This document shows, in pieces, positions 3,262 through 31,257 of a stretch of 64,000 nucleotides of DNA; the first letter of the stretch is position 1; each line of letters begins with the position of its first letter. The translations under genes were made by a program, and so were the position numbers. The notes under the pieces were generated by a model that was not told where the DNA came from, made no database searches, and saw only the letters and a program-made list of their open reading frames with translations. Source of the DNA: Macrostomum lignano (lineage: Eukaryota); the NCBI GenBank assembly GCA_002269645.1, contig NIVC01000151.1, positions 434,001-498,000 of the forward strand, given 5' to 3'.

Positions 3262-3463
3262 GTAGCGACACAGGGTTCCAACATCAAACTATCCATATTA
3301 GCATAGCAACCACCATCACAGTACAGCAATTTTTAACTTCAGCATAAAATCCCACGGATACAACATAGCAACCACTGATTCCAGCATAGCAACCAATGAT
3401 TTTAGGAAAAAACCCATTGATTCTAGTATAGCAACCACTTCCAATTGCAGCAATGCCGGGGTG

Positions 3464-3817
3464 AGTAGTATGTAAAAAGACGAGTACAGACCCAGAACCC
3501 CCTTTTTAAAATATGCGTTTTTAAGGTCTAGAGGGGGGACACGGGGGGAAATTTAAAGAACACATCTAAACACCCTCCAACACCCTCCAACACATAAAAA
3601 CACATCTAACACATAAAAACACATCTAACACTATTAACACTTCGAATCAAGTCCCCCGTGTCCCCCCTCTCTAGACCTTAAAACGCATATTTAAATAATG
3701 TCTGATCTGTGCTCGTCTTTTTACATACTACTACACACACAAACTCTCTAGAACCCGTCGCACGCGCCGCAGGCGCGAAGGGTCTTTTTCTGTTACTAAA
3801 AATGAGCCGAGTTTACA
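3464..3817 (+). repeat. Left terminal inverted repeat of the Polinton
   Basis: Reverse complement of 20055-20408; in the stretches compared I saw one substitution (AATAATGTCTG vs AATAAGGTCTG). Confidence 0.97.
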
Positions 3818-4087
3818 TGAATTTCACATGATACATGCTAACGAATATAAAAAATCATGTGCTGTTTTACACAAAATGCACCGAGGACAGAGAATAAAAG
3901 CGTCTATTGTGCTACAGCGGGGCAGGCCATTTTTGGATAGAGAATCTTTTGTGTTTGCGCCATCTATATTTTCTATACAAAAAAAGAGTAAAAAAGAGCT
4001 ACAAAATAAAACCGCTCGAGATGCTTGCACACTACCCATTCTTTAGTGTCTGCAACTTAATTTTTCTGTTACTAAAAATAGACAAAA

Positions 4088-5494: not shown

Positions 5495-5578
5495 GCTCCT
5501 GGGGGGAGGGTCTGGACGCCAAAAACGCAAAATTAAAAAATCAATAATTCAAACATTATATAAATTTTATTTTATAAA

Positions 5579-8500
5579 ATGGAATCTAATTTAGCTCAAA
5601 TCGACAAACCTAATATAAGAGCCGAAATGGAAGCACAAATTAGAGCAGAAATAGAAGCACAAATTAGAGCAGAAATAGAAGCAGAAATTAGAGCAAAATA
5701 TGAAAAACGTTTAGAAAGACAATTAAATGATATTGACAACCCCCAACCACAAAGACAAAATGGAGCTGAAGTAATAGATATAGATATAGATATAAATACA
5801 AATTATAAAGAATATTTTAAACAAATGAAAGATAAATTAAAGACCATATTAAACAATTATACTATAAGGCCAAATAACAAACGACAGCCAATTAAGTATA
5901 AAATAGAAGTTGAAACGGAATTTAAAAAACCAAATATACTTAATGCAAATTCAGAAATTGAAGTAATAAATAACTTTTCACAAGAATCATATAAAACATT
6001 ACTATCAATGAGAAATTACGACAATCAATTTAATCAAATAGAAGCTGAGTTTGATGAATGGATAGATAAGATGACAGAAAACGGATCTGGGTTTATATTT
6101 GTATCTTGTAATTCAGCAACAGTAAAGATTGTTCCTATTGAAATTCTTAAAGGGCGATCACATATGAATCCAGGATTTAAATCACACATGATCATAAATC
6201 CAGACAATAGTGATAATAAATGTTTATTATGGTGTTTATTAATTCATAAATATCACAATCAAGTAGAATCACACACTAATAAAATATATAATTATAGACA
6301 ATATGAAAATGAAATAATAATGGAAAACATATCATACCCAGTAGCCATAGATGATATATATAAGATTGAAAAAATGAATGGGTTAAATATTAATGTGTTT
6401 ACAATTGAACAGCCAGAAGAAGAAAATCCAACCGATCGGACTCCGTCCGCGACCCATCAGGTCGATAAAGATTGGTATAAGAAAAACTGTTATTTAGTAA
6501 AGCCAGCAACTGATATAACAGCACCCGATCAAATCGATCTTTTGTACATACAGAATGAAAATGAAACACATTATATCTACATAAAGGACATTAGTTCATT
6601 TTTAGAAGTAAATAAAAATAGAATGCTATTATGTAGAAACTGTTTCACATTTAAAAAGAATGAAACAGCTCTTAAAAATCATCAACGATTTTGCTTAGAT
6701 CATAAATTTACTAATGTTGTAATGCCAGATTATGAAGATGCAACCCTAAAGTTCCAACAACATTATATGGCAATTAAAAAACCAATAGTAATATATGCTG
6801 ATTTTGAAGCAACAAATGTTCCCTTAAAAGAATCACAGACAGTATCTGATGGCGAATGCACAAAAAATTAGCACAACAGTTTCCGAATAGTTATTGTATA
6901 TATGTTCATTCTGTAGCAGATCATATATTTAAATCAAGGATGATTACTTACCACGGTAAAGACGCAGCAAAACGCATGGCAGAATCATTACTAAATGCAT
7001 TTGAAGTTATACAAAATCAATATGATAAATTATCAAAAAATATTATTATGACAGATAAGGATAGAGACAATTATAAAAATGCAACAAATTGTTTTATGTG
7101 CAAAAGGTATTTAAGTAAGAATAATAAAATACGAGAACATTGTCATCTAACGGGAAAATATCGTGGGGCAGCATGTAGATCATGTAACGCAAAAGAAGGA
7201 AAAGGCTGTAAGGAAATACCAGTATTTTTTCATAATGGTTCCGGATATGATTTTCATTTCTTAGTTCGAGAATTGCTACATTTAGGAAAGGATGAATATG
7301 AAGTAAATATATTACCTAAAACATCAGAAAATTACATATCAATAACATATGGTAAGAAATACTCCCATCTAGTTTTTCTAGACTCCTTGAGATTCTTATC
7401 AACCTCCCTAGCGAATGTTGTTTCATCATTAGTTCCAAAACCATGGGATTTAGAAATAGTAAAGAAAAACTTTCCAATACTATTGAATCGTTTCAAAAAA
7501 GAAAAACTATCCGAGGAAGAACTAATGCTATCAACTCGTAAGGGCATCTATCCATATGAATATGTAACATCTGAAAACGTATTTAGTGATACTCAACTAC
7601 CCTCAATTGATAAGTTTTATTCAACATTATCACAAACAAACATAAGTGAATCGGATTATGAACACGCTCAAAAAGTATGGAAATACTTTAATTGTAAAAC
7701 ATTTAAAGATTATCATAATCTATATCTTGAAGCAGATGTTCTCCTATTAGCTGATGCATTTGAAAACTTTAGGAATCATACATATGAGAACTTCAAAATT
7801 GATCCCGCATATTGTTTTAGTGCACCAGGTTTAACATGGGCATGCGGTTTGAAACATACAGATGTTGAGATTGATTTACTAACTGATCATGATATGTTGT
7901 TAATGATTGAGAGAGGAATTCGCGGCGGATTCTCGGGGGTACTAGGAGATAGATATACTAAAGTAAATAATAAATATCTACCAAATTATAATAAAAAAGA
8001 AAAATCATCATATGTATTATATCTAGATGCAAACAATTTATATGGCGGTTGTATGAAACAAAAATTACCAATAGCTGATTTTCAATGGGAAGACGATCCC
8101 GATTATTACAAAAACATTCCCGAAGGAAGGGGCTGTATTGTAGAAGTGGATTTGCAATATACTCGAGAAGCAAAAGCAAAAACATATAAATATCCTTTAG
8201 CTCCAGAGCATTGTTCAGTTAATGAAGATGATTTATCACAAACACAAAAAGATTATCTTAAAGCAGATAATGCAAAACATCTAGCAACAAAAAAGTTAAT
8301 ACTAAATTTACATGATAAGAAAAACTATGTAGTGCATTATAAGCTTCTACAATTTTATGAAAAGCAGGGATTAAAAGTGTCTAAAGTACATCGAACAATA
8401 TCGTTTATTGAGGAAGATTGGTTAGCTAAATATATTGATTTTAATTCAAATCAGAGACAGACGTCAAAAACAAATTTTGAGAAAGATTATTGGAAATTAA

Positions 8501-9324
8501 TGAATAATGCTTTTTATGGAAAAACGGTTGAAAATATTAGAGATAGAACCCAATTCCATTTAGAAAAGGATATTGATAAATCAAAGAAATATTTCTCAAA
8601 ACCTAACTTTAAAGATTTTATAAAATTTGATGATAACTTTATGGGTATTTATATGAGAAATAAAACAACAAAATTTCTTAAACCAATATTTATTGGAATG
8701 GTAGTTTTGGATTTTGCAAAGCTAGTAATGTATGAATATTATTATGATGTTATAAATAAAACATGGCCAGATAACTATCCAATATATGCAGACACTGACA
8801 GTTTGGTATTTAAGGTTGAAACACCAGACGTCTATAAAGATATGGAAAAAATTAAGGATACATTGGATACCTCCGACTATCCGGATAACCATCCCTTAAA
8901 ATCGAATCAAAATAAAAAAGTTGTACTTAAAATGAAAGATGAATTAAATAGCAAAATCATAACCGAGTTTATAGCAATAAGATCAAAATGCTATGCATTT
9001 AAAGTTTTAGGACAGGAGGGAGAGGTAAAAAAAATAAAAGGGGTATCAAGGGCAGCAGTTAAAAAGATAACATTTGATGATTATAAAAACGTACTTTTAG
9101 ATTATCTTAATACAATCGAAAATTATCATGCTCCACAATATCGATTAAATTCAGATAAGCATAAGATGTTTGTCATCGAGACAGATAAAAAAACATTAAG
9201 TCCATTTGATGATAAAAGGTATTTAGATGATAAAATTAAAACATTTCCATTTGGTTTAAAAGAAGAGATAAAAAATATGATAAAAGATAAAAAAACAAAA
9301 AGAAGATATTATAATCAATTATAA
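5579..9324 (+). CDS. polB: Protein-primed family B DNA polymerase (pPolB), split by one frameshift at ~6862-6868
   Basis: ORF 5579-6871 (KGRSH..NPDNSDNKCLLWC, ExoI IYADFEA) plus ORF 6856-9324 (endonuclease-VII-like C..C...EHCHLTGKYRGAAC..CN, FFHNGSGYDFH, RKGIYPYEY, YLDANNLYG, KLMNNAFYGKT, YADTDS). One extra A in the A6 run joins them as ...ECTKKLAQQFPNSY. Confidence 0.95.
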
Positions 9325-9510
9325 AGAATACAAAGAAGCAATAAATAATTATTATTACGATTGTGATTGCGAATCCGAATGTGAATGTGAATATAATACA
9401 TTTCTAGAATATAAAAACGACATAGAAAATTATTATGCAACATTTCCAAAAGAACTTAAAAAATTAAATAAGGAAAAGTCTTGGATAACTGGAAGAGATT
9501 AACAGAAAAA

Positions 9511-9852
9511 TTACTTGAAAAAAACTAAAGCATGTAATTGTTTAAGCATAATATCCATTTCGATTTCGTATTTTATAGAACACCAATTATCCTCGCAGTC
9601 GGCAGGGTAACTTAAACATTCTTTTATTTTTTTCCTAAGTATTTTTATTTTCCTAACAAGTCGATCGATTTCAATTTCAATTACTGTTTCAGCATAAGCA
9701 ATTGCGCTTTTGATAAAACGCTTTCTTTTATCCATCTCATATCGGATAGGAAACATATCATCCCCATAGTCACTATAAAACATAGTATTTATTTTTTTAT
9801 TAATATCATTAAGTTCACGCTCTTTAGTGATAAGGATCATCTGTATCTCCAT
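9511..9852 (-). CDS. Polinton hypothetical protein (113 aa)
   Basis: Intact ORF with the element-typical AAAATG start; no recognised domain. Confidence 0.6.
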   Translation of the reverse strand: MEIQMILITKERELNDINKKINTMFYSDYGDDMFPIRYEMDKRKRFIKSAIAYAETVIEIEIDRLVRKIKILRKKIKECLSYPADCEDNWCSIKYEIEMDIMLKQLHALVFFK

Positions 9853-9868
9853 TTTCTTATAAAAAAAT

Positions 9869-10204
9869 TTAGTCTTCGTCTTTATCTTCCTCCCAAACGG
9901 AAGCCAATTTTACAGTCCTGTCACTCTTTTTATTTTTTGTTTGTTTTAGTTTAAATTGCAATCCATTAGCCGGATTATATTTCATAATGAACGCTTTCGG
10001 TTTATTAATAACTAAAACTGGAAAATTTTTAACATCATTACCACTTAGACATAGGACTGTATGCCCATCCAATTGTAAAAATATCGATTGAAGTCCAATA
10101 AATTTAACCTGTCTCAAACATATAATATTATATTCTTTATTCTCCAACATATTGGGGGTGACATAATTAATCACATTAGAATCAGTTTTGAACCAACTTT
10201 CCAT
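9869..10204 (-). CDS. Polinton hypothetical protein (111 aa)
   Basis: Intact ORF with TAAAAATG start, tandem with the previous ORF. Confidence 0.6.
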   Translation of the reverse strand: MESWFKTDSNVINYVTPNMLENKEYNIICLRQVKFIGLQSIFLQLDGHTVLCLSGNDVKNFPVLVINKPKAFIMKYNPANGLQFKLKQTKNKKSDRTVKLASVWEEDKDED

Positions 10205-10230
10205 TTTTAATCTAAAAAAATAACAAAAAA

Positions 10231-10656
10231 ATGAAAGACATTTATGAATGTAAAAAGTGTAACGTGACTATGCATAGAGCTCAAACAGCAAACGGAGATA
10301 TATATCATATGTGCTATTCATGTTCTAAAATATATCAATTTGAAAAAACAAAAAAGATTGAAAACTCATATTACTATTTTAAAAACACAATTTTAAGAAA
10401 TCTTACAAGGGACATTTCTCATCCAATTTTAATTCCCGGAAATAATGTTTATTTATATAACAACTTTTTCAGTTTAAATAAAGGAAAGGGATTAAGTTCG
10501 AAAGACTCCGAAAGGATTTTAATTTTAGTTGGATATTATTTTAACTTTCTTATTCGAGAGAATACAAAGTTTATCAGGATAGGTAACATACCTAACGAAA
10601 TGTTACTGAAAAAGTCATTGGAATTTTTATGTATTGATAAAATCATAGCCAGCTGA
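10231..10656 (+). CDS. Polinton hypothetical protein with N-terminal zinc ribbon
   Basis: 141 aa; CKKC...CYSC motif; AAAAAATG start. Confidence 0.6.
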   Translation: MKDIYECKKCNVTMHRAQTANGDIYHMCYSCSKIYQFEKTKKIENSYYYFKNTILRNLTRDISHPILIPGNNVYLYNNFFSLNKGKGLSSKDSERILILVGYYFNFLIRENTKFIRIGNIPNEMLLKKSLEFLCIDKIIAS

Positions 10657-12639
10657 TGTGCTACCACAAACGGCCGCGCCACGAATAAAATGTGCAGCAT
10701 CTGCTCCTCCAGTTCGAGCACCAAAACCCATAAGAGTTCCCGTTTTATCTAGCTCTCCCCAAGTGCCACTATCATATGTAAAAAAGTTTTGTCCAATTAG
10801 CGTATAAACTTTGGTTGATACATTGTATGTGCTTATTTGATACCAAATTCTTTGATTTAAAATATTAATTTCAAAAAGATGCCAATCACCATTATCAATA
10901 TTAGCATAGGTTATAGTTTGATCAGCATCATTAAGAACATCATTACGAACTGTTGCACCGTCTGATTTTATATTACTCCAAACAACTCCAACTCTATCAG
11001 TCCATTCACTAGCAAACACAATCAAGCCGGCGTTGGTTGTTAACCCGGATCCAAATTCGGTTGTTGGCCGTTCATGACAGTATGCATAAAACCAAACCGC
11101 ATCTGCACCATCTCCTGTAGAATTAGCAACTCGGAAATAGAAGGAGACGGATATATTACGAAAATGGGTGAAATTAAATTGTAACGCCCCAGAGCGACCC
11201 GATGCTTCATCAGTAATTCTAGCTCCATTTTGATAATCAATATAAGTAGCATCACCAACAAAACTTCCTGTTGGAAAAATATCGCCAGCTGTGGTTGGAT
11301 TTTGATATCCAGTCCAATTGCAAATTACGGGTTCGTACAAAGCGGCATCAATTGCTGGTATTCCATCCAATTTTATTTTATCGTTAAAAGACATTCGCCC
11401 ATCCGCCGTTTGGGTTACTCGCGTATCAACATAACCTTTAGTAACAACAGAAGTGTTATCGTTTATAGTAGAGATATTAGTAATTGTATTATTACCCATA
11501 TCAATTGATTGATTAACTACTCCTAAATTTAAATCAAGAATTGTAAACGTCTGTCTATAAATCTGGAAGGTTGACAGACCTGGGTTGGTTGAACCCGAGG
11601 TTGATGTAAGACAGAACAATCTGAAATATGAATACGTTTTATCAAAATTTTGTGTTACATTAATTGTTCGAGTTGAGTTATTTATTTCTACAGAACTATC
11701 CGCAGGTATTAATACGTCCCAACTTGTATTGTCATTACTGCCCTCAAATCGCCACGATGCTGGGTGCTCGGTTGATGGCGATGGCCTACCACGTAAATCA
11801 ATTTTATAACACATTATTGCGGAAGGGCATTGGACTTGAATCCAATAATCGGTTTGAGTATTATTTGTTGCCCAATCTGATGAGTCATCACCATCAAACG
11901 CTTTCCAGCTTGCAAAATCGGTTGTATTAAATGCGGTGCTTGCGGTTATTGCAAAACCATTTCCACTCCAATCTGCCATGGTAGGTACGTGGCCGGTTTC
12001 AACCGTTTGGAATCGATCTTGTTTTGGGGCTCCACCTCCAACTAAATTATCAACCTCCGTTTTGGTATAAGAATCAGCAACGTTTCGTTTTAAATTTAGG
12101 GAATTATCAACTTCAGTTTTGGTATAGGAATCAGCAACATTTCGTTTTAAATTTAGGGAATTATCAACTTCGGTTTTGGTATAAGAATCGGCAACATTCC
12201 GTTTCAAATTTAAGGAATTATCTATTTCAGTTTTGGTATAAGAATCGGCAACATTCCGTTTCAAATTTAAGGAATTATCAATTTCCGTTTTGCTATACGA
12301 ATCGGCTGTATCTCTTTTTAAATTTAATGAATTATCTATTTCGGTTTTGGTATAAGAATCGGCAACATTCCGTTTCAAATTTAGGGAATTATCAATTTCC
12401 GTTTTGGTATAAGAATCGGCAGTATTGCGTTTTAAATTTAATGAATCATCTATTTGAGTTTTGGTATAGGAATCTGCAACATTTCTTTTTAAATTTAGTT
12501 TAGTATCAACTTCACTTTTTTTATAACCTTCATCTTCATTAATATATCGGTTGTCTCCGAAGGTAACACTTATTCCACCAGACGTCCCACCGCCAGTACT
12601 TGTTGTTCCGTTCCATGAGGGTGTTCCAGAAAATAACAT
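10627..12639 (-). CDS. Fibre/adhesin-like protein: 19-aa shaft repeats, discoidin (F5/8C)-like domain and ConA/L-lectin-like domain
   Basis: 670 aa. About 9 copies of DSYTKTEIDNSLNLKRNVA; then AFDGDDSSDW...WIQV...WRFEGSNDNTSW (discoidin-like); an IDMGNNTITNI motif; and a C-terminal beta-sandwich with GALQFN...ISVSFYFRV...GADAVWF (lectin-like). Confidence 0.75.
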   Translation of the reverse strand: MLFSGTPSWNGTTSTGGGTSGGISVTFGDNRYINEDEGYKKSEVDTKLNLKRNVADSYTKTQIDDSLNLKRNTADSYTKTEIDNSLNLKRNVADSYTKTEIDNSLNLKRDTADSYSKTEIDNSLNLKRNVADSYTKTEIDNSLNLKRNVADSYTKTEVDNSLNLKRNVADSYTKTEVDNSLNLKRNVADSYTKTEVDNLVGGGAPKQDRFQTVETGHVPTMADWSGNGFAITASTAFNTTDFASWKAFDGDDSSDWATNNTQTDYWIQVQCPSAIMCYKIDLRGRPSPSTEHPASWRFEGSNDNTSWDVLIPADSSVEINNSTRTINVTQNFDKTYSYFRLFCLTSTSGSTNPGLSTFQIYRQTFTILDLNLGVVNQSIDMGNNTITNISTINDNTSVVTKGYVDTRVTQTADGRMSFNDKIKLDGIPAIDAALYEPVICNWTGYQNPTTAGDIFPTGSFVGDATYIDYQNGARITDEASGRSGALQFNFTHFRNISVSFYFRVANSTGDGADAVWFYAYCHERPTTEFGSGLTTNAGLIVFASEWTDRVGVVWSNIKSDGATVRNDVLNDADQTITYANIDNGDWHLFEINILNQRIWYQISTYNVSTKVYTLIGQNFFTYDSGTWGELDKTGTLMGFGARTGGADAAHFIRGAAVCGSTSAGYDFINT

Positions 12640-12648
12640 TTTTACTGT

Positions 12649-13089
12649 CTATTTTATAGAATCTAAAATTATCTTAAATACTTCGGGGGTTAAACGAGCT
12701 TCATTCGAAAGTCGATATAAAAAATACAACGCCGCTTGTCCGCAATAACTTTTGTCAAAGGTTTGAAACTGTTCGTGGTGATCTCCACATAAACGATTTT
12801 TAGTATGATTAAATTTATCTTTTATTTCCTGTAACGGAGGAAGCGCGTATGAATCAAAAAAATAAACAAGTTTAGGTTTTGAATAAACTGCTGACCAATG
12901 AACACCATTTTCTTTTGTCGTTTCGATGTTAACAATGTAAGATCCATATATTGGTAAATCTTTTATCTCATCCCGCATAACACATCTGAATGGTTTTATT
13001 TTTAATTGTGTCGCCCAATTTGTTAATTCGATATTGCTTGTTGTGTCTGTTCCATATCTTTGTTTAAAATCGCCCCACGTCATGGTCAT
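12649..13089 (-). CDS. Adenain-like cysteine maturation protease
   Basis: 146 aa; catalytic pattern GVHW...YFFDSY...QFQ...SYCG. Confidence 0.9.
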   Translation of the reverse strand: MTMTWGDFKQRYGTDTTSNIELTNWATQLKIKPFRCVMRDEIKDLPIYGSYIVNIETTKENGVHWSAVYSKPKLVYFFDSYALPPLQEIKDKFNHTKNRLCGDHHEQFQTFDKSYCGQAALYFLYRLSNEARLTPEVFKIILDSIK

Positions 13090-13090
13090 T

Positions 13091-13263
13091 TTATGTTCCT
13101 GAAAAACTCTTGGTTTTGGTTAGTTTCGTAGGTTTGGATTTTAACAGTTCCTTTCGGATTTTTTCTGCCTGTAATTGTTTCAATTTTGTTAATTCGATTT
13201 CATAATTATCTTCAGCTTTTTTAACTTTTTCCGTTTGTTTTTTAAAGCATTGTTGTTACCCAT
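13091..13263 (-). CDS. Small basic protein (~57 aa) starting MGN, reconstructed across a one-base frameshift at ~13240
   Basis: AAAAATG GGT start. One extra A in the A6 run gives MGNNNALKKQTEKVKKAEDNYEIELTKLKQLQAEKIRKELLKSKPTKLTKTKSFSGT*, filling the gap between penton and protease. Confidence 0.45.
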
Positions 13264-13307
13264 TTTTACTATGGGAAACGGACGATGTCCTCGAACCTTT
13301 GGTTCGG

Positions 13308-14093
13308 CTAAACCTGTTTTATACGTAAAATTACTGTTATTGACTGCCCACCAAAACTTATTAATCTATCGCTTTCATCTACAATCCTAATATAAATCGA
13401 TTGAACATTATATTGATTTAATGGGTAATATATGGGGGTTTGAGGTGAAACAATCATTTTCTCTCCAATTGGAACAGCAAGAAATGGGATTGAATAAATA
13501 ATTCCACGTTGAACCAAAACTCCGTTATCGTCTGTTATATAACCACCGTTTGATATGTCGGTTGTTATATTAATTGTATTTACTCCACCCTCTATATTTC
13601 CAACTGTATCGCCGGTGCTTGATGCGGTAACTATTCGAGAATTAAATCCAAGTATGGTTCTGAGTGAATTTGCAATTGTGAAATCAACCTGATATCCAGA
13701 TTCTAGTGATAGTGTGAATCTGCCAGATGGTAAATCAACACCGATAACAATTGCACCTGCTACCCAATCTCCATTTGCTGTTAATTCTCCTTCTATATAA
13801 GCATTCAAATCAGTATAGCTATACGCACCCGGGCTAACACTAAATGTTGTCCAATTGGCTCCGGAATCTTTAGAATATCTAAATTGATTATTTGTTGCAT
13901 TAATTAATTGAGGCATGTTAAAAACCGAAAATAATATCAAACCAATTTGATAACTTAGGCTTTGATCGAGTTTTAGCGGATCGCGCAATTGAATCCGTTG
14001 TTCGCTAGTTGTCATTATAAACTGTAATGTTGTACTAAATTTTGAATTAGTTCGATCTACCAATTGTTTAATAGTATTTAAATTTGTTGTCAT
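13308..14093 (-). CDS. Minor capsid protein (penton, single jelly-roll)
   Basis: 261 aa with Polinton penton-type motifs PGAYSYTDLN, SLRTILGF and C-terminal PIYYPL...IYIRIVDESDRLISFGGQSITVILRI. Confidence 0.85.
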   Translation of the reverse strand: MTTNLNTIKQLVDRTNSKFSTTLQFIMTTSEQRIQLRDPLKLDQSLSYQIGLILFSVFNMPQLINATNNQFRYSKDSGANWTTFSVSPGAYSYTDLNAYIEGELTANGDWVAGAIVIGVDLPSGRFTLSLESGYQVDFTIANSLRTILGFNSRIVTASSTGDTVGNIEGGVNTINITTDISNGGYITDDNGVLVQRGIIYSIPFLAVPIGEKMIVSPQTPIYYPLNQYNVQSIYIRIVDESDRLISFGGQSITVILRIKQV

Positions 14094-14113
14094 TTTTATA
14101 GTGGGAAATTGTG

Positions 14114-14874
14114 CTAAGTCTCTTCCTCGTTATCTTCTTTTATCAGATCTTTTAAGATTCGATTTATCCTTTCTAACCTAGGGTTAATATATATGTGTCT
14201 GTATTGGCTGTCATCCCAAATTTTTTTACACATACTTTTAAATGGTTTTATATCCAACCCGGGATTAAATCTAGCGTGTATATTTTGTAAATCATAATTA
14301 TCTAATCAAACATTACACAACAACTTGCATTCTTTTTTATAATCGATTCTAATTCTCTAAAGGACTGTGTTAAATAAAAAGCTCCAATTCCATCTCCTCT
14401 ACCACTAACAAAAATTTCCTTTTGTAATTCTTGATCGCCGTCGTTAATACAATCATCAAAAATAATTAGTGTTTTATCATTTTTTGGAATTTGATCATAG
14501 GCTAATCGGGTTGATACTCTAACGGTTGGGGCGCGTTCGGTGGTGTTTTCCGGTTCTTGCGCCATTGTTTTACACAAATTCTCAATGTCATCGAGTTTAA
14601 ATCGCGGTTCGTCATCATCCTCATATTGCTCATATGCTCTTAACATTCTAAACAAGATATCTTTTTTTAATTTGTTTTTTAATCCATGTTTAAGAAATTC
14701 ATAATATTTTATTCTAGGTTTGTTAGTATAAATTAATAAATTATTATAGTCTAGCATTCCGTCGGTTGTTAACAGGTCATAAACAAAGTGTGTTTTTCCT
14801 TTACCCGACCCACCAATTACTAAACAAAGAAAAGGATCATTTGGAAATATTTTATAGTGTTTTGCTTTTACCAT
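14114..14874 (-). CDS. A32/FtsK-like DNA packaging ATPase, with one frameshift at ~14304
   Basis: Walker A GGSGKGKT, Walker B IIFDD, then SGRGDG...LTQS. The C-terminus (LDNYDLQNIHARF...FKSMCKKIWDD...EEET*) continues in the -1 frame after TTT GAT TAG. Probable ATG at 14874. Confidence 0.9.
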
Positions 14875-14890
14875 TTTTAAAGATAAAATT

Positions 14891-16362
14891 TTACAGCGGG
14901 GCGTCCCGAACGATGGTGCCATCTGCTTTAGCAATTGATAAATATTCCTCTAGAAACAATACGTGGGCGTCTATTGCCTGATTACCGGTTTTATTAATCT
15001 CTAACATATAATTAAGTCCAACATTGGATACGTTTTCTTTCTGTGCCGTTAGATCATAAACAACTACTGGGTGGATGTTTAGAAACTCTGTGGGTGTGTA
15101 CTGAGGGATGGCATACGCTTCATTTTTGGCATAATCTTGATAATATTTTATAAAATCATTAACATTATTATTTGCAATATTTAGATTAAGAGGATCTTTA
15201 ACCGGATAGTATTGGTCATCAACCTGCAGGCGGATATTCTGAACATTAAACTCGTTAATAGCTGAAACCGCATTGTCTGTTGCGGTAGCTGCTTGTGCTG
15301 CTATAGTACCCGATTGAATCCAATATAAATCCCCATTTGCTCTTTTACTCCTTCTATTTGTTATCTTAAACCAAACAAAATATATCTCACCCGACGTTTT
15401 GATGTCAGTATTTGCCACTGGAATGAGTCCTGATTGTTATTAATGGTTCGCATAAAGTGTCTACGATTCAAATAAAATATTTCCTGATCATGCGTTAACT
15501 GATTATCGATGTGTTTTAAAAGCGGAGCCGTTACCTCAATAGTTGGTACGACTAATTGTATTGATGCTATACGAACTGCTATATCGGTTGAAATTGAGGT
15601 TCCATAAAGTATCCTAGGCTGATACCCACCAGATATTTGCAACTGTACCCCAAATTTTAATCCTTTCCATACCCGATTTGGTGAGAAGAACCCAAATAGT
15701 GGAAAGATTGAAAAGTCCTGCTCATATGCTGTTGCTGTGGTTAAAACCGCGACTGGGAATTTATTCTGGCGATCTATAAAACCCGTATTAATATCTTTTG
15801 TGTTAGTCATAGTGGTTACAACTAGAACTATATTGGTATTAAGATAAGCTATAAGAGCTGCGGTATCTGCACCAGCTGCATTTTGTACATTGGGGAAAAC
15901 CACCGCTTGCCCATTGCCCTTATCCGGCATCCACCCAACATTATCACCAACTTGTTTTGATAAATAAGTATAATTTAAATGTTTCAAAACTCCATTAATC
16001 TCTGCGGGGTTTGACGATGTCTCAACCTCGGCTCCATTAACGGTTAGTTGAGCTTGGGAAAAACATTTATAAAACCAATCATTTTCTATTATTATTCCAG
16101 AACGATCTGCGATATCTCCGGCTGCTAGAGCAGTTCCATCATTTCTAGTATACAACCATCTAACGCGGAAAAATGCATTTTTCATATCCAATATGGTGTT
16201 GGTTGCACCGATGTCAAAAGCTACCGTTCCGCTAGTAAAGTTATTTGTATTATCACTTGTTGGTAGGGTATAATTTAAATCTCTTGCCCTGACCTCATTA
16301 ATATACTGTCGGTGCTTTTTGAAATGAAATTTATCACTCCATATAGTTTTTGTTTCAGCCAT
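14891..16362 (-). CDS. Major capsid protein (double jelly-roll), with one frameshift at ~15369
   Basis: ORF 16362-15361 plus ORF 15418-14891. One extra T gives RVRYILFGFKITNRR, matching the Polinton MCP RY(I/V)..GFQ motif; later NIRLQVDDQYYP and VVVYDLTAQ. Confidence 0.85.
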
Positions 16363-16397
16363 TTTTTTATGTTAAAAAAGTTTTTTCATGTTAAAAA

Positions 16398-17072
16398 ATG
16401 AGTCAATTTATGGATGTTGATGGAAATTTAGCGATTTATAAAGAAAAGCAAAGATATTCTGATTTTGTTAGAAATTTACAAAAAAGAAAGTTGGGAATAG
16501 AATTAGCTGGTGAAAGACTTGCTGCTCCTTTTGTTAATCCTATTACTGGGAAAATTAGTGAGCTAGAAAAAACAGATAAAGACCTTCATGAAAAAATTGC
16601 TAAGAATACGGAGCCAAAAGAGGATGAAATTTTGGATGAGCCACCTGCTTATGATGTTGATCAAGCACTATTGAGAGTTGCAGAGATTAGGGCTGCAGAA
16701 AGGGATGGAGTTGAACAATTTCAAAGAGATGCGCCACGTAGTATTGCTGTGACAGATTTAGGTAATAATAATTATCGAATTGGTGGAGTTGATAAAAATC
16801 GGAATGAGCTATATAGAGAATTGGGTGGAGCATATAATATTATTATGAACCCTAGGGTAAGATTTAACCCTGATTTATATACTAGGGATGAATTAGTAAG
16901 TGCTAAAAATTTTTACGATGAGTTAGGAGTAAGAGCTGCTAAAAATACCAGCTTGTATAAAAGGATTGTTGATTCTATAAATAACAAGCCGGCTGTTGGC
17001 GAAGGATTTAAAACTCCACGAAAACTTGTATTAGCTGCTGCGAAAGCTGCTGGACATACAGGAATTAATTAA
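16398..17072 (+). CDS. Polinton conserved hypothetical (PZ/core-like) protein
   Basis: 224 aa; N-terminal K..L...PFVNPIT.KI motif and a late VGEGF (GxG) motif, consistent with a protease-processed core protein. Confidence 0.5.
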   Translation: MSQFMDVDGNLAIYKEKQRYSDFVRNLQKRKLGIELAGERLAAPFVNPITGKISELEKTDKDLHEKIAKNTEPKEDEILDEPPAYDVDQALLRVAEIRAAERDGVEQFQRDAPRSIAVTDLGNNNYRIGGVDKNRNELYRELGGAYNIIMNPRVRFNPDLYTRDELVSAKNFYDELGVRAAKNTSLYKRIVDSINNKPAVGEGFKTPRKLVLAAAKAAGHTGIN

Positions 17073-17095
17073 TTGTTAAATTTATTTTTTATAAA

Positions 17096-17727
17096 ATGGA
17101 AACTAAAAAGATTTGTAGTCTATGTAAAGAAGAAAAACCAATGACTATAGAATTTTTTTATTGGAGAAATGATTCAAAAAATTTAGAAATGATTGTCGAT
17201 TGTGTCATAATACTTCGTCTACGATGTGGATGAAAAACAATAAAGATAAATGGAAAGAATATAGAAAAAATAAATATCACACCGATGAAAATTTCAAAAA
17301 TATTACTCTAATTAGAAATAGAATAAATTGGGCGTTGAAAAATTTTAATGACAAGGACTATATCTCATATCTTGGTTGCACAAAAGAATTCTTTTTTGAT
17401 TGGTTAAATTTCACAAGAAATTATTATGTATCAAAAGATTATACTGGAATGTTACATATTGATCATTTAATCCCCGCTTCTTCATTTAGTTACAAAGATA
17501 ATGACCAGATGAAAAAGTCTGAACATTGGACAAATAAAAGATACTTAACTAGCGTAGATAATCGCTATAAAAAAGTTAAACAACCAACTATCGAAGAATT
17601 TGCAAAACAATTAGTGTTAACTTGTATTTTTAAGGCTATTAAAAATGAGCAATCATGCGATGCATGCGAACCGAAGGTTCGATCGGACGAAGTCCGCGTT
17701 CCTTCGGAACGATCAATTAGTGTTTGA
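17096..17727 (+). CDS. Free-standing HNH endonuclease with N-terminal C4 zinc finger, with one frameshift at ~17180
   Basis: METKKICSLCKEEK...(fs)KFRNDCRLCHN joined to ORF 17200-17727, which contains YLGCT, LHIDHLIP...HWTNKRYL...N..K as in viral HNH nucleases. Confidence 0.85.
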
Positions 17728-19283
17728 AGGAGGATTGTTGGATGTTCAAAAAGGATTAACAAGCTTACCACCAATCTTTACTACTGGAAGGTATACAAAT
17801 GAATTACACATCCCGTCTTACAACTTCGCAGGTTAACCCGTGGCCTAAGTGGTAGAAGCAAAGCTACTGCTAGTCACTATTTGTGGCGACATCTTCAAAT
17901 TGCGTGAAACCCGTCATACAGCTTCAAGTACCACTTCAATTGAGAAATCTTTTGAAGGAACAGAGGTAACTCCTCTTCCCAAAGGTAACAAGCTTGAAGA
18001 CATGGTGGCAATGCGCAGCCAAGCTCCTAAGTATTTAAATATAAGGAGAAGGTTCAGAGAGCAGACGGAGATGGGCGGTAATTTATCCGCTTAAGGTGTG
18101 CTCCAGCCTATTTCGAAAGATTTAGGGCAAACTACCCGGGACTCGGCTGGATTTAAGATTAAATCCTGATAATACTCCTAAAGCTGATTCAATTCCCATT
18201 AACGGTATTGATTGGTTAGCATACTATCATGACTTAGCATACAGAGATGCTGATAAGAACTCACCCGAGGAAGCATTAAGATTAAAGCATGAGGCCGATC
18301 GAAAAATGATTCAAGGATTAGATAACTTACAGGGCTTATCGGTAAGCCAAAGATTAACTAGGTGGATGGTTAAAAAGATTTTGCAGTCTAAAGTTAAATT
18401 TGGTTTGGGAATTAATTACAATCAACATGGAAATAATTGTGTTGAGTGTCTGTTATTAAGTGGTGGTGGGTTAAGTTCTGATGAGGCAAAGATTCTTCAC
18501 AAAGAATATCGAAAACCTAAATTTTACCGAAAGATCATGAACTTTAAAAAGAATGAAATTTGGTATGCTGATTTAATGTCTATGCCGAACGAAAGAGGAT
18601 ACAAATACATTTTAACCATATTAGATGGTTTTACTCGATATGCGTGGGCTGTTCCTTTGAAATCCAAAAAAGGAGAGGAGGTTGCTGGTGCTTTTAGAAG
18701 TCTTGGAGAAAAAAGTGAAAGGTTGTGTGTTGATGAAGGAAAAGAATTTTACAATCCTCATATGTATAAATTGTATCATTTTGAAAAAGGACAAGAAAGG
18801 AAAAAAGACGCGAATGGGGAGTATATTAATAAAATTTATTCTATTTATGGAGAAAGTAAAAACGCATTAATAGAAAGATTTAATCGAACTTTGGGTAAGA
18901 AATTGTGGTTTCAGTTTAGTCTTAATGGAAACCAAAAATGGGTAAAAATATTACCAGACGTCGTGAAAGATTATAATAACTCATATCATTCAACTATAAA
19001 GATGACTCCTCAACAAGCTTATAACAATCCTGAAAAAGTTAAAGTTACTTTTAGAGAATTTGAAAAAAAGAAAACTAAAGGTTTTAAGGTTGGTGATTCT
19101 GTTTATATCTATAAATGGAAAGATAAGTTTGAAAAGGGAAGAAAAGGATATTGGAAGATAAGTGAGAAATTTACCATCAGTAAAGTTTTAAATACAAATC
19201 CTACAACCTATATAATTGCTGATAAGGATGGTGAAGAAATATTGGGTTCGTTTTATGAGAATCAAATCATATCTGCGAACTAA
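17645..19283 (+). CDS. Phospholipase A2 (parvovirus VP1u-like, PLA2X) followed in frame by a retroviral-like DDE integrase; interrupted by a group I intron
   Basis: Exon 1 17645-17833 (...ELHIPSYNFAG) plus exon 2 18135-19283 (PGTRLDLRL...DWLAYYHDLAY...EADRK...KVKFGLG, then WYADL, LTILDGFTRY, VDEGKEF, IERFNRT, YNNSYHSTIKMTP). The spliced product would be 445 aa. Confidence 0.88.
17834..18134 (+). ncRNA. Group I self-splicing intron, subgroup IC1-like (P5abc present), 301 nt, no internal endonuclease ORF
   Basis: Pairings read from the sequence: P1 AGGU(17830-33)/GCCU(17843-46) with U.G at the 5' splice site; P10 CCCGUG/CCCGGG; P2 17848-55/17864-71; P2.1; P3 CAUCUUC(17890-96)/GGAGAUG(18067-73); P4 UGCGUG/UGCGCA; P5a CUUCAAG/CUUGAAG with A-rich bulge; L5b GAAA; P6a CUCCU/AGGAG; P7 GAGCA(18059-63)/UGCUC(18099-103); P8 GGCGG/CCGCU; L9 GAAA. 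Removal restores YNFAG-PGT in frame. Confidence 0.92.
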
Positions 19284-19293
19284 GTTCGAACAA

Positions 19294-19518
19294 TTACTTA
19301 AGACAACAGGGTAGTAAATTTTTTATAACAAACAAAAACAATATTATTACTATTATTGTTACTAATATAATTATTGACATTTGTTCAACGGTGATTAGAC
19401 TTAAATTTTCATTAAGTTCATTAATCGGCACATTTCCGATGTAGGAGTAGTTTACCTTCATTTTTTTAAATATATTTTTCACAATAAATGTCGTTTCTGT
19501 TATAGAATAATAGTTCAT
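19294..19518 (-). CDS. Small single-pass membrane protein (74 aa)
   Basis: Hydrophobic stretch IIILVTIIVIILFLFVI followed by KNLLPCCLK; AAAAATG start. Confidence 0.55.
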   Translation of the reverse strand: MNYYSITETTFIVKNIFKKMKVNYSYIGNVPINELNENLSLITVEQMSIIILVTIIVIILFLFVIKNLLPCCLK

Positions 19519-19521
19519 TTT

Positions 19522-19752
19522 TTAAATATTTTTTTCACAGTTTAAACACTGTGCTAATATAAGACTTTGCTCCCCCTTATCCCAAATATACTCTAATTCT
19601 CCAATTTCAAGCGGATATATCTTTATATCTGGAAATATATATACTTCATCTAGTATTTCATCCTTTATTAATTTTTTTATTGAATCAAGTGCATTGAATA
19701 TTGTTTGAGTTGATTCAATTATTGAAAAGTGGGGTCTGTTAACTAATTCCAT
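19522..19752 (-). CDS. Polinton hypothetical protein (76 aa), paralog of the 19756-20070 ORF
   Basis: Shares FS...IK..I...I.DEVY...D.K.YPLE..E with its neighbour. Confidence 0.6.
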   Translation of the reverse strand: MELVNRPHFSIIESTQTIFNALDSIKKLIKDEILDEVYIFPDIKIYPLEIGELEYIWDKGEQSLILAQCLNCEKNI

Positions 19753-19755
19753 TTT

Positions 19756-20070
19756 TTACATAAAAATTTCAATTTCATTCTCAGAATCACTGGTTTCATA
19801 TGAGCTATTTGTTGATTCAGAATCTATTGATCTAACCTCCCAATAATCTGAATTTAAATAATCTCCAAGTTGAAATATTAACTCTCCCTCTTGTTCTAAA
19901 TCATACATCTCATCCAACTCTAATGGATAAAGTTTTAGATCGTGCTTGTCGTCATATTTTAAATAAACTTCATCAATTATTCCGTTCAAGATATGCTGTT
20001 TTATTATCTCTGCATTTTTAGCAACAGTCTCAAAAGTATCACTAACAGAAAAGGTGTAAACTCGGCTCAT
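19756..20070 (-). CDS. Polinton hypothetical acidic protein (104 aa) whose start codon lies inside the TIR
   Basis: AAAAATG at 20070 (MSRVYTFSVSD...); DEVYL...KLYPLE motif shared with the 19522-19752 ORF. Confidence 0.6.
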   Translation of the reverse strand: MSRVYTFSVSDTFETVAKNAEIIKQHILNGIIDEVYLKYDDKHDLKLYPLELDEMYDLEQEGELIFQLGDYLNSDYWEVRSIDSESTNSSYETSDSENEIEIFM

Positions 20071-20408
20071 TTTTAGTAACAGAAAAAGACCCTTCGCGCC
20101 TGCGGCGCGTGCGACGGGTTCTAGAGAGTTTGTGTGTGTAGTAGTATGTAAAAAGACGAGCACAGATCAGACCTTATTTAAATATGCGTTTTAAGGTCTA
20201 GAGAGGGGGGACACGGGGGACTTGATTCGAAGTGTTAATAGTGTTAGATGTGTTTTTATGTGTTAGATGTGTTTTTATGTGTTGGAGGGTGTTGGAGGGT
20301 GTTTAGATGTGTTCTTTAAATTTCCCCCCGTGTCCCCCCTCTAGACCTTAAAAACGCATATTTTAAAAAGGGGGTTCTGGGTCTGTACTCGTCTTTTTAC
20401 ATACTACT
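20055..20408 (-). repeat. Right terminal inverted repeat of the Polinton
   Basis: Reverse complement of 3464-3817. Confidence 0.97.
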
Positions 20409-20784
20409 GGGGTGTCAGTCTCGTGAAAGTTGGCGCCATCAAAGCAGAACTGGATCGCTCCGGTGGGGATTAGGGAATCTGGTTGCACATATTAAGAACG
20501 GGCCGTTAAGGTTTTTTAGATCGAATGTAACGAGTTTTGGGTTTTGTCACAGGGGCTTTTTTAATGCTAAGAGATTGCAATTATCAAGTATAAGATTGGG
20601 CCAGGCTTTCTTCTCAAGAACCAGTCCGTTCGGGAAATATAGAAATGGAGATAATATTGATCAATCTGATCTGAACATTCGCCGCACATGTTGTCTGTCC
20701 TGCCACTTGCTGGCAGTAGGCGGCCATCAGCTTGCCCAGCCGTCCCTGGCCCCGCACGCACCCGCAGTTGCCCGAACTCCCCCG

Positions 20785-21931: not shown

Positions 21932-24350
21932 TCAGACAGCATTCTCTCCAGCCTCCGACATCGCGGTCTCCTGCGGCTGCTCAACCTGATGATGCTGCTC
22001 CTGCTGCTGCTTGAGCTCCTCCTGGTCGGCCTTGCTGAGGAAAGCCAGATGGCCCTTGTGGCAGGCATTGGCGTAGTGGCCCTTCTCACCGCACTTGAAG
22101 CAGGTCACCTCCGACAGGGGCCGCGGCCCGCCGCCTCCGCCGGCTTCGCTACCGCCGTCTCCGCCAGCGGCGGCCGCTCCACCTGCCTGATGTTGTTGCT
22201 GCTGCTGCCGGGACCTGTTGTAGCTGTTCCGCTGGAAGCCGCCGCCGCCCCGGTGGTAGCGCCGGTTCCGGTTGAGGCCGGGCCGGTGGTAGGGGTGGTG
22301 CTGGCTCAGCCTGTGCTGGTGGTCGCCATGGTTATGCCGGTAGCCATGGTGATGCCGCACTGGCTGGGCGTGGCTTCGCCCAGTGGCTGCGGCGGCAGCT
22401 GCGGCGGCCTCCATGAGAGCGGGGTTGGCGTGCGCGTGCGGCTGTTTGAGCTGCGGGTTGAGCAGCGGGTTGGAGGCCTGCTGCTCGGCGGCCTTGCGGG
22501 CCATGATCTGCTCCAGCACCTCGCGGCGCTCCTCCTCGGACAGCTTGAAGCAGAACTGCACCTTGTGGCCGCGCTCGCCGCAGTGGCGGCACAGCCAGCT
22601 CTGCCTGCGCTCCAGGCTGCTCTCCAGCTGCATCTGGCCCCAGCGCGGGTGCGCGAACTGGCAGTCGGGGCCCTCGGGGCAGAAGCCGTTCAGGTAGTTC
22701 ACGCAGGCCACTCGGCGAACGTGGCGCATCTTGCAACTGGGGCCGTTGCGGCAGAAGCCGCGGTCGTACCACTCGCACTGACGCACCTGTGAGCAGTTGA
22801 TTGGCAGTGAATTGACAACTCTAAGAGATCCTGCAGTGGGGACCAAGCCTAACAGCTACAAGCACGCACACACCCGCTCACACAGGTGCACAGCGGCCCG
22901 ACTTTCTAATCGTCATCGTCATGCACCCTCTGTCTTGAGGACTAGCCCTTGTGGGTGTGAATAGCACGACGAACCCAAACTAATGTGACCACGCACGGGA
23001 ATCGAAGCAGGTGTTGTAGCGCAAGAGATGGACGCATTTACTGCTGACCTGCCCTGCCGCCCCCAGTCAGACATAACTTGAGTAGATAAAGCTACCTTGC
23101 TCCCCCTGGTCAGGCATACTGCAATACCCTAACTTGAGTAGATAAAGCTACCTTGCTCCCCCTGGTCAGGCATACTGCAATACCCTAACTTGAGTAGATA
23201 AAGCTACCTTGCTCCCCCTGGTCAGGCATACTGCAATACCCTAACTTGAGTAGATAAAGCTACCTTGCTCCCCCTGGTCAGGCATACTGCAACACCCTAA
23301 GTTTGAGTAGATAAAGCTACCTTGCTCCCCTGGTCAGGCATACTGCAATACCCTAAGTTTGAGTAGATAAAGCTACCTTGCTCCCCCCTGGTCAGGCATA
23401 CTGCAACACCCTAACTTGAGTAGATAAAGCTACCTTGTTCCCCCCTGGTCAGGCATACTGCAACACCCTAAGTTTGAGTAGATAAAGCTACCTTGCTCCC
23501 CTGGTCAGGCATACTGCAACACCCTAAGTTTGAGTAGATAAAGCTACCTTGCTCCCCTGGTCAGGCATACTGCAACACCCTAAGTTTGAGTAGATAAAGC
23601 TACCTTGCTCCCCTGGTCAGGCATACTGCAATACCCTAACTTGAGTAGATAAAGCTACCTTGCTCCCTTGGTCAGGCATACTGCAATACCCTAACTTGAG
23701 TAGATAAAGCTACCTTGCTCCCCTGGTCAGGCATACTGCAATACCCTAACTTGAGTAGATAAAGCTACCTTGCTCCCCTGGTCAGGCATACTGCAATACC
23801 CTAACTTGAGTAGATAAAGCTACCTTGCTCCCCTGGTCAGGCATACTGCAATACCCTAACTTGAGTAGATAAAGCTACCTTGCTCCCCCCTGGTCAGGCA
23901 TACTGCAATACCCTAACTTGAGTAGATAAAGCTACCTTGCTCCCCTGGTCAGGCATACTGCAATACCCTAACTTGAGTAGATAAAGCTACCTTGCTGTTG
24001 GGGTCGATGTGCTGAAACGGACAGTCCTTGTTGAGGCACTGGCCGAACTTGGTGAAGAAGTAGCACTCGGGCATTTTTGACATGTCAAACTCGTGCAGGA
24101 ATTCGCAGTCGTCGCCCTTCTTGCACAGGCCGCGCAGCCAGTGCTTGCAGACGACAGTTCGGTCGCCTTTGATATGCCGAAACGGGCAGGTGGCGCCCAT
24201 GTGGCAGCCGCCGCGCAGGTAGAAGGTGCAGACGCCGCTGCCGGACTTGTCCATGCCGGGGTAGGGCAGCGGCTGCAGGCCGATCTGCTGCTCCAGCTGC
24301 GTCTCGATGTAAAAATCGATATCGCTGACCTCGGATATGAGATCCTCCAT
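21932..24350 (-). CDS. CPSF4: Cleavage and polyadenylation specificity factor 30-kDa subunit, 2 coding exons (~404 aa)
   Basis: Exons 24350-23991 and 22786-21932 (phase-0 GT-AG intron). Five CCCH fingers ([33 protein letters not shown]; [19 protein letters not shown]) and CCHC knuckles ([16 protein letters not shown]). Confidence 0.95.
23075..23996. repeat. 55-57-bp minisatellite, ~16-17 copies, in the CPSF4 intron
   Basis: Unit AACTTGAGTAGATAAAGCTACCTTGCTCCCCTGGTCAGGCATACTGCAATACCCT; each unit contains the donor-site sequence. Confidence 0.95.
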
Positions 24351-30780: not shown

Positions 30781-31257
30781 GGCATAGTTCTAGTTTACTT
30801 CGTTATATTATTTAATAATTCTACTTTACTTCGTTATATTAATTTCATGTATTTTCTTGCAATGCCACATGCTACTCGGGACCTGTATCATCACCGATGG
30901 CTGGCTGGCCTATGCTGGGCTACAGAATCACGCAGTGGTAAACCACCGTCTATATTTCATGGATCCGGCTGACCCAACAGTGCACACAAACCACATCGAG
31001 GGGATGTGGGCCCTGGCCAAAAGGCGCCTATGTGCCATGCATGGAATGAGTGACGCGCTTCTTGAGGCCCATCTTGAGGAGTACATCTGGCGCTGCATGT
31101 ACCATAACAACCCCTTTGGCGCCGTGCTGTACTGGGCCTCTGTTTATTATCCTGTTTAGGACTTGACTTGACCTTGAACCTGAAATTGATAGAAAAACAG
31201 GGTAAACTAATTTAATGAAAGGCAGAATAATATAACGAAGTAAACTAGAACTATGCC
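30781..31257 (+). mobile_element. Internally deleted Merlin/IS1595 (ISXO2-like) DNA transposon
   Basis: Perfect 29-bp TIRs GGCATAGTTCTAGTTTACTTCGTTATATT; flanking AAATTAGC duplication; internal C-terminal transposase fragment IITDGWLAY...VNH...HTNHIEGMWALAKR...LEEYIWR (30857-31159). Confidence 0.88.

Follow-up and report, generated by a model that had tools for sequence, protein, structure and literature searches.

A group I intron interrupting PLA2-integrase in an animal-integrated Polinton, and its possible partnership with a restriction-type nuclease

Metazoan group I introns are, according to passages of a 2024 review (PMC10964413), absent outside basal lineages and some sharks, and the nuclear group I introns described there are confined to rRNA genes. 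In viruses, the polr2a/b introns of Bodo saltans virus (Deeg et al. 2018, PMC5871332) interrupt protein-coding genes and occur as nuclease-bearing "parent" and open reading frame (ORF)-less "offspring" forms, for which a role in the competition of co-infecting viruses has been proposed. The intron described here, at positions 17834–18134 on the forward strand of a 64,000-nucleotide stretch of Macrostomum lignano DNA (the window, from contig NIVC01000151.1; all positions are numbered within it, and the copy that it carries is called the window copy), is alike in that it is ORF-less, has nuclease-bearing sister introns and interrupts a gene of viral type, encoding a PLA2 fused to an integrase. 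It differs in lying in an integrated animal Polinton, in the type of nuclease (apparently a short-site restriction enzyme rather than HNH or GIY-YIG), in an element-wide purge of the presumed target site and in a terminal A in most copies. Giant-virus capsid-gene introns (IMG/VR loci L198–L202) share its P2/P2.1/P5abc architecture and are accompanied by kin of an HNH-like ORF that lies beside it.

Related arrangements are known elsewhere. Introns of about 300–380 nucleotides that match Rfam family RF00028 have been published for nuclear-integrated Polinton-like viruses of protists (cryptophyte Rhodomonas, Paulinella, Desmodesmus; PMC12220804); passages of that paper place them in protists only, in few groups and in a short gene before the major capsid protein (MCP) gene, and name neither a nuclease nor a mechanism, and its supplementary Tables S11–S12 could list more. 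Restriction-type folds within group I introns are represented by I-Ssp6803I (PD-(D/E)xK) and I-Bth0305I (EDxHD) (PMC3943268, PMC3424549), which are bacterial or phage enzymes with sites of 17 base pairs (bp) and more, unlike the Eco47II-family nuclease considered here with its seemingly 5-bp site. In phages, marker exclusion and collaborative homing (Zeng, Bonocora and Shub 2009, cited in PMC11296320) likewise pair a free-standing nuclease with an adjacent ORF-less intron that masks the target, the intron nuclease of phage PhiPA3 reportedly being a further example, and the idea of an intron masking the site of its own nuclease in viral competition is already in print; the present system differs in being a eukaryotic integrated element with a slot that exchanges HNH-like and restriction-like genes. 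Chloroviruses and giant viruses direct type II nucleases of restriction-modification systems against foreign DNA (10.1101/299784), whereas here neither the window element nor 8 kb of a sister family shows a methylase, and protection apparently comes from site absence and the intron. Adintoviruses and Mavericks with PLA2X (PMC8502044) have the same animal Polinton genes and a parvovirus-like PLA2, which here is fused to the integrase; a group I intron goes unmentioned in the passages of that paper. A literature search that covered few subscription papers turned up no paper that describes a group I intron in an animal Polinton, and none that gives a short-site restriction enzyme a homing or intron-masking role.

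The 301-nucleotide insert opens with an in-frame TAA directly after the 5' exon and splits YNFAG from PGT in the calcium loop of PLA2, as an earlier note on this DNA had read. RF00028 matches positions 17856–18125 (60.2 bits, cut-off 50, E 8.8e-13) and is the sole Rfam family matched within the window; with the compensatory pairing described below, this bears out the group I identity proposed in that note. The borders are the same, with zero slide, in three intron-less alleles of the window's family (L016, L023, L095) and in 19 alleles of a sister family, and the comparison with these 22 Polinton copies fixes both ends. It is virtually certain that the insert is a real group I intron. Its final base (18134) is an A instead of the canonical G, and this A-ending copy is counted as group I by its descent from kin that end in G. 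The earlier note mentions neither this A nor the restriction-type nuclease nor the purge of GGNCC.

The intron separates exon 1 (17645–17833, forward) from exon 2 (18135–19283, forward), which by Pfam and translation encodes the remainder of PLA2 and an rve integrase in one frame. The PLA2 domain (PF08398) scores above its cut-off in intron-less copies (34–36 bits) and below it in exon 2 alone. The PLA2-integrase fusion is widespread, with 487 homologues, and Gly-Pro is present in the PLA2 loop in 61 of 120 among those listed. The first in-frame ATG of exon 2 lies at 18306, downstream of the PLA2 catalytic region, so PLA2 needs spliced RNA; the integrase core could alternatively start from that ATG. 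The earlier claim that expression depends on splicing therefore stands for the PLA2 part, and for the integrase as a possibility.

Genome searches recovered many copies. A search with the intron DNA gave 173 candidate places, 40 of them scored, at 93–100%; exon 2 gave 150 scored of 514 candidate places, and a genome scan with RF00028 gave 28 scored places, all above the cut-off and all adjoining the PLA2-integrase gene, the sister introns scoring 72–91 bits. Altogether 106 loci of the host genome (L numbers) were read, some copies being represented twice. Three intron classes share one insertion site: the window's short class 1 (299–337 nucleotides), family 2 (836–895 nucleotides; exon protein about 57% alike to that of the window's family) and class 3 (about 330 nucleotides, with a different core). 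A degenerate-pattern search yielded the 22 intron-less alleles, of which three resemble class 1 and 19 resemble family 2.

Some of these copies are unusual. Class 3 (L025, L029, L067–L086) has P1–P2.1 and P5abc as in class 1, with a compensated change in P1, and an Rfam scan with RF00028 gave no match to its introns; a chimeric ribozyme seems to be the result. The 3' border of class 3 could lie at any of three in-frame candidate ends, none of which retains Pro-Gly, and likeness to a metagenome contig (L117, see below) favours the earliest. The intron-less family-2 alleles (L087–L093 and 12 further places) all have C, not T, at the last base of exon 1 and other synonymous changes that would break P1, and upstream of several there is one more GGNCC; their lineage may be resistant to invasion or lie outside the purge. 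L094 is a nested or rearranged copy, in which a truncated intron 5' end runs into the beginning of a further family-2 element without an intron.

The complete helix set of the earlier note is present on the forward strand of the window copy: P1, with U.G at the 5' splice site (17829–17833 with 17843–17847, spanning 17829–17847), P2 and P2.1 (17849–17887), the P2.1 loop being where sister introns hold their nuclease ORF, P3 (17890–17896/18067–18073), P4 (17901–17906/18012–18017), P5abc (17911–18008), P6–P6b (18018–18053), P7 (18057–18063/18099–18104, with the G-binding pair 18059–18103), P8 (18074–18091), P9.0 (18105–18106/18132–18133) and a P9 hairpin with GAAA (18107–18126). A candidate P10 pairs 17837–17842 with 18135–18140. 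Traits of subgroup IC1 are P2, P2.1, P5abc with an A-rich bulge and GAAA loop, and the P9.1/P9.2 extensions. The window intron has all of these except P9.1/P9.2, a single P9 hairpin being followed by 8 nucleotides to the end, and the IC1 label of the earlier note is not established.

Covariation was assessed at 90 pairs in 55 distinct introns (34 short, 20 nuclease-bearing and one metagenomic), a set that omits class-3 introns and the rearranged L094. Pairing holds in 95.0% of cells, compared with 36.6–47.9% when the partners are slid by 1–3 positions, the unslid score being favoured by helices drawn on the window copy, and double-sided changes occur at 30 of the 90 pairs (5–9 in the slid controls), located in P2, P3, P4, P5a–c, P6b, P7 and P9. 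The U.G at the 5' splice site is present in 55/55 introns and the G-binding G-C pair of P7 in 53/55; the P7 variant GAGCA/UGCUC that the earlier note singled out is real. A flipped P7 pair covaries with a third base, at 18098 in the window copy: this base is G in all 34 short introns (opposite G-C in 33 and G-U in one) and A, with C-G, at the same triple in 21/21 non-short introns. The corresponding A306-C266-G309 of Tetrahymena forms the fourth triple, or layer, of the G-binding site (PMC10020454). This joint change of pair and triple base points to selection on the tertiary fold of the ribozyme. A plain minimum-free-energy fold is weakly better than shuffles (z −1.9), as expected because the core is pseudoknotted. 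A fragment from another sample (P0164) has a read-through start (MCSS...), which would imply the same P7 variant outside this genome.

Removal by the spliceosome was also considered, as was neutral insertion. GT forms the last two bases of exon 1 and an AG lies at 18124–18125; such GT/AG borders break the frame, however, the intron-less alleles put the ends at non-GT/AG positions, and the covariation and the triple change show selection on ribozyme structure. Spliceosomal removal was rejected, and this pair of explanations is barely credible.

The intron resides in an animal genome. The 764-Mb assembly contains 86 Wnt and 18 troponin matches, troponin being a bilaterian marker, and host CPSF30 exons identified by homology (21932–24350, reverse) flank the element and score 223 bits to the animal protein vs 107 to yeast Yth1. 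The element (3464–20408; 16,945 nucleotides, 33% GC) is a full-length integrated Polinton/Maverick, delimited by 354-nucleotide terminal inverted repeats (TIRs; 3464–3817 forward and 20055–20408 reverse, found by repeat comparison) that are 100% complementary and by a 6-bp target site duplication (TSD; 3458–3463 and 20409–20414). With its Polinton gene set, it agrees with the context and the animal nuclear host that the earlier note had proposed. That the element belongs to a protist or to some other contaminant of the assembly might be suspected from the group I introns published for protist Polinton-like viruses (PMC12220804) and from the nearest intron kin, which are in giant viruses. This origin is very improbable and largely refuted: the TSD and CPSF30 exons flank the window copy, copies are spread over well over 100 contigs, contigs C67, C393, C506 and C952 bear Wnt and element matches together, those PolB homologues that have a named source come from mussel, sea anemone and spider, and all listed sequencing runs containing the stretch have one organism label.

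The sister introns of family 2 contain a 228-residue ORF that is located in the P2.1 loop and extends into the core (the loop location was found at 25 of 26 family-2 loci). Its product matches Pfam RE_Eco47II (PF09553) at 31.2 bits (cut-off 25.9, E 2e-7). The best fold match of its predicted model (pLDDT 91.8) is EcoO109I (Z 9.6, root-mean-square deviation 3.8, 162 aligned), the only one with a Z of at least 8 among 48,161 chains compared, and Foldseek returns EcoO109I at E 8e-5 with a TM-score of 0.64–0.69 and lists AvaII too. Residues D65, E76 and K78 are invariant, and the 163-residue model has no extra DNA-binding domain. On this modelling, the nuclease is an Eco47II/EcoO109I-like type II restriction endonuclease of PD-(D/E)xK fold. 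DdmD, first by Foldseek E-value, was rejected as fold kin at a TM-score of 0.41 vs 0.64–0.69 for EcoO109I, and a Protein Data Bank (PDB) sequence search with the nuclease profile gave nothing useful. EcoO109I recognises RGGNCCY and AvaII GGWCC. By analogy, the nuclease most likely cuts GGNCC, and Eco47II homologues have been linked to GGNCC "without certainty" (PMC10305163). A cognate methyltransferase was found neither among the ORFs of the window element nor in L043 and L197 (8 kb of family 2, whose elements were read in part).

In the window's family the nuclease can lie outside the intron. A free-standing gene for it, 62–69% identical, is located directly before exon 1 at 13 of 41 class-1 and six of 21 class-3 loci; the remaining loci of both classes, the window included, have an HNH-like ORF in this slot (17224–17727, forward). 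Slot genes end at an equal distance from the splice site, and the HNH-like ORF is 60–100% alike among copies. The slot (17224–17727 in the window; L004, L022, L027 and L082 elsewhere) swaps the HNH-like ORF and the Eco47II-like nuclease. The HNH naming relies on an Atlas lead at 0.88 and on likeness (31–34%) to ORFs among giant-virus capsid introns; Pfam and PHROGs offered no name for 17224–17727.

Of the 114 nuclease matches in the genome, none lies on the 20 contigs that carry the 22 intron-less alleles, compared by eye. Outside this genome, the independent metagenome contig L117 has the same gene, insertion site, intron (80.6 bits) and nuclease (55% identity), and 10 of 17 database homologues of the nuclease, by eye, visibly continue into the same intron core, those that do so being 51–63% identical. 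Distant relatives (28–39% identity) are free-standing and common in giant-virus-type contigs. An Rfam scan of 20 nuclease loci found the intron in L117 and in none of the 19 distant loci, and viral contigs scanned with one protein at a time (nuclease, intron-less PLA2, MCP, PolB, exon 2) yielded no relative. Nuclease and PLA2-integrase fragments that agree in the length of their longest contig (P0001/P0164, P0011/P0199, P0022/P0216, P0026/P0214, P0032/P0190) hint at the module in several other public assemblies.

The insertion site coincides with the presumed target. The intron interrupts GGT|CC, where the calcium loop of PLA2 has its Gly-Pro codons, leaving the 5' half of a GGNCC in the Gly codon (17831–17833, forward) and the 3' half in the Pro codon (18135–18136); GGNCC is forced at this loop because every Gly-Pro codon pair spells it. 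Elsewhere in the element the word is absent: 0 GGNCC in 16,945 nucleotides vs 15.6 expected, and 0 in 3,030 and 5,000 nucleotides of family 2 vs 4.2 and 4.4, whereas a host stretch of equal GC has 19 vs 18.2. GGNCC is the rarest of the 256 NN-N-NN words in the element, the next lowest ratio being 0.47. Resampling of synonymous codons with the proteins kept gives a mean of 5.6 sites and zero in 2 of 1000 runs; shuffling of codon order gives a mean of 13.8 and zero in 0 of 1000. The dipeptide Gly-Pro is likewise absent from 4,578 and 1,802 residues (7.9 and 4.0 expected). At class-1 loci that lack the intron, GGNCC occurs once, at the junction. Across 90 nuclease loci and L197 overall, GGNCC is mildly low (319 vs 440). 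A GGWCC or RGGNCCY specificity would spare 20 of the 22 intron-less alleles and misfits a purge of all GGNCC.

Two further observations concern such sites. In P0171, an intron-less PLA2-integrase homologue, Gly-Ala-Gln replaces Gly-Pro-Gly and the GGNCC is lost, making it a possible escape allele. Within 3464–20408, CTNAG, CCNGG and CANTG occur at about half the expected frequency, perhaps as traces of other restriction pressures.

The model that we favour, and consider moderately probable as a whole, is that the window intron is the ORF-less partner of a mobile nuclease-intron module in which a type II restriction-like nuclease takes the place of a homing enzyme with a long site. GGNCC has been purged from the Polinton except at one forced site, and only an intron, by restoring the site in the RNA, could remove it from the DNA there. 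In a cell shared by several elements, the nuclease, supplied from inside the intron (family 2) or from a free-standing gene beside it (part of the window's family), would cut intron-less PLA2 genes, and the cut rivals would be excluded or else repaired by copying the intron (homing). The intron and the site purge would stand in for a methylase and protect the element itself, splicing would restore PLA2, and the module would have entered animal chromosomes along with the Polinton. Host DNA might be spared by tight silencing of integrated copies or by expression in the lytic phase only; chlorovirus enzymes are expressed in the lytic phase (10.1101/299784).

Several observations weigh against this model. 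The 22 intron-less alleles persist with an intact GGNCC, and just three intron-less copies belong to the window's family, too few for an exclusion test. Host DNA shows no purge of GGWCC (70 vs 68.6), and a 5-bp cutter should damage the host. Related PolBs use Gly-Pro at 0.45–0.51 of expectation (120 homologues), so the dipeptide part of the purge counts less. In the window copy, MCP and PolB are split, which may mean that this copy is inactive, and P1 contains a C-A mismatch.

An alternative is an ordinary homing pair with a long-site enzyme, GGNCC having been purged earlier under pressure from GGNCC restriction systems of a helper or rival giant virus or through sequence bias. The distant nuclease relatives are free-standing and common in giant-virus-type contigs, giant viruses deploy restriction systems against rivals and virophages (10.1101/299784), the PD-(D/E)xK homing enzyme I-Ssp6803I reads 17 bp (PMC3424549), and Gly-Pro is somewhat rare in related PolBs. 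Yet the purge is total and word-specific in two families whose proteins are about 57% alike, the purged word matches the family of the element-borne enzyme, the position of the intron is precisely that of the single forced site, and the nuclease model, at 163 residues, is without an extra DNA-binding domain. We judge the ordinary homing pair improbable.

The end of the intron raises a separate question. Among the 100 listed of 102 matches, counted by eye, the terminal base of the short copies is A in 79 cases and G in 11, 10 matches being unrelated; stricter patterns give 75 A-ending and nine G-ending copies. Family-2 introns and L117 end in G. A-ending copies retain 98.1% pairing. Directly behind the terminal A, 72 of the 79 listed copies, by eye, encode PGTRL in 14 synonymous haplotypes, its five codons having been left unconstrained in the search pattern, and the remaining seven have one replacement each. 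These codons are read only from spliced RNA because they precede the first ATG of exon 2. Over the 57 codons before ATG 18306, 22 copies, partly picked by protein likeness, hold 51 synonymous vs 17 replacement variants, and the codons behind the intron are under purifying selection. P10 has 4–5 Watson-Crick pairs in 22 of 23 A-ending copies, 3–4 in G-ending short introns and 1–2 in each of the 20 family-2 introns. In short introns, the 3' splice site may be fixed by P9.0 together with a P10 that they have newly gained. The short, mostly A-ending introns are predicted probably still to splice, and for the A-ending copies themselves we regard splicing as fairly likely.

There are points on the other side. 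With A as the last base, an intron lacks the canonical omega-G, which occupies the G-site in step two (PMC10020454). The end state is scattered on the intron tree, with nine changes (33 of 500 shuffles being equally low), so that copies recombine and the link between intron end and exon may be loose; recombination or homing could pair a dead A-ending intron with healthy exon haplotypes. On this basis, the A-ending short introns, that of the window copy among them, might be dead for step two and spread by homing or recombination, the PLA2-integrase being borrowed from G-ending or intron-less helpers, or the integrase alone being made from an internal ATG. L098 (A) and L106 (G) are otherwise identical over the aligned columns, the in-frame ATG at 18306 lies ahead of the entire integrase core, and the window MCP is broken. 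Such an account is nevertheless unlikely given the A-ending majority with its retained pairing, the synonymous haplotypes that keep PGTRL from the first post-intron base, the excess of synonymous variants ahead of the ATG, and the difference in P10 between A-ending and family-2 introns.

In assembled contigs from three presumed-RNA runs and one unlabelled run, no joint over 17834–18134 was seen, the existing intron-less alleles being equally unseen and exon-1 variants being lost as loose ends, among the matches listed; contigs spanning both intron borders are present. Among the runs listed as containing the stretch, none is recorded as RNA. The literature search, which cannot match Greek-letter spelling, found no natural A-ending group I introns. 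The furthest-reaching form of the favoured model is a methylase-free 5-bp restriction system with a self-splicing intron as its antidote, the ribozyme being active on mRNA in animal nuclei and its commonest form ligating with a terminal A, in breach of the omega-G rule; this is tentative and falls somewhat short of probable.

As to origin, a pattern search with P5abc recovered five viral contigs, all with giant-virus-type capsid genes containing introns of the same build, 77–88% alike to P5abc over 66 nucleotides, and two of the five contain ORFs related to the window's HNH-like gene. In L199 and L201, giant-virus-type capsid genes are interrupted by up to six group I intron matches within 6 kb, with HNH-like ORFs. 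The closest kin found are giant-virus capsid-gene introns, and an rDNA-type origin is not supported. Since kin of the intron, the HNH-like ORF and the nuclease all occur in the giant-virus pool, the module appears to have been drawn from it, a direction of transfer that we infer from sequence likeness.

The remaining features of the element follow Polinton organisation. A protein-primed PolB region with an endonuclease VII/HNH insert (5579–9324, forward) is present as two ORFs in the window copy. On the reverse strand are an adenovirus-type protease homologue (12649–13089, 66% alike to a family-2 ORF), whose function is assigned by gene order, a minor capsid-like gene found by family-2 comparison (13308–14093), presumably for the penton, a packaging ATPase with a Pox_A32 Pfam domain (14302–14922) and the MCP gene (14927–16362), in two broken frames in the window copy. 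A fibre-like ORF (10627–12639) combines 57-nucleotide tandem repeats with an F5/8 type C domain. A small multi-hairpin element, which we take to resemble mobile double-hairpin elements, is inserted in frame in exon 1 of the window copy (about 17649–17713) and occurs reversed in the P5 region of many introns (for example L010, L015 and family 2); in the loci it was seen 22 times in introns and three times upstream. Outside the element, host DNA at 1200–2300 and 20800–64000 is dense in minisatellites of 8–72 nucleotides, also between the CPSF30 exons, and an ORF at 30869–31159, in an AT-rich stretch with inverted repeats, seems to resemble an ISXO2/Merlin-type transposase C-terminus.

The finding places a mobile group I intron with its nuclease in a new compartment, the unusual features being the purged 5-bp target and the terminal A. 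In the chromosomes of an animal that has troponin, the intron breaks a protein-coding gene and forms a family of over 100 copies, which would extend gene flow from giant-virus introns to animal Mavericks and suggests that Mavericks co-infect and compete as viruses. It would offer a test case for a restriction enzyme turning into a homing enzyme by purging its site instead of reading a longer one. Because introns ending in A and in G occur naturally side by side, with the covarying G-site triple and the gained P10, the rules by which a 3' splice site is chosen become directly testable, in a ribozyme that is compact and may function in animal cells.

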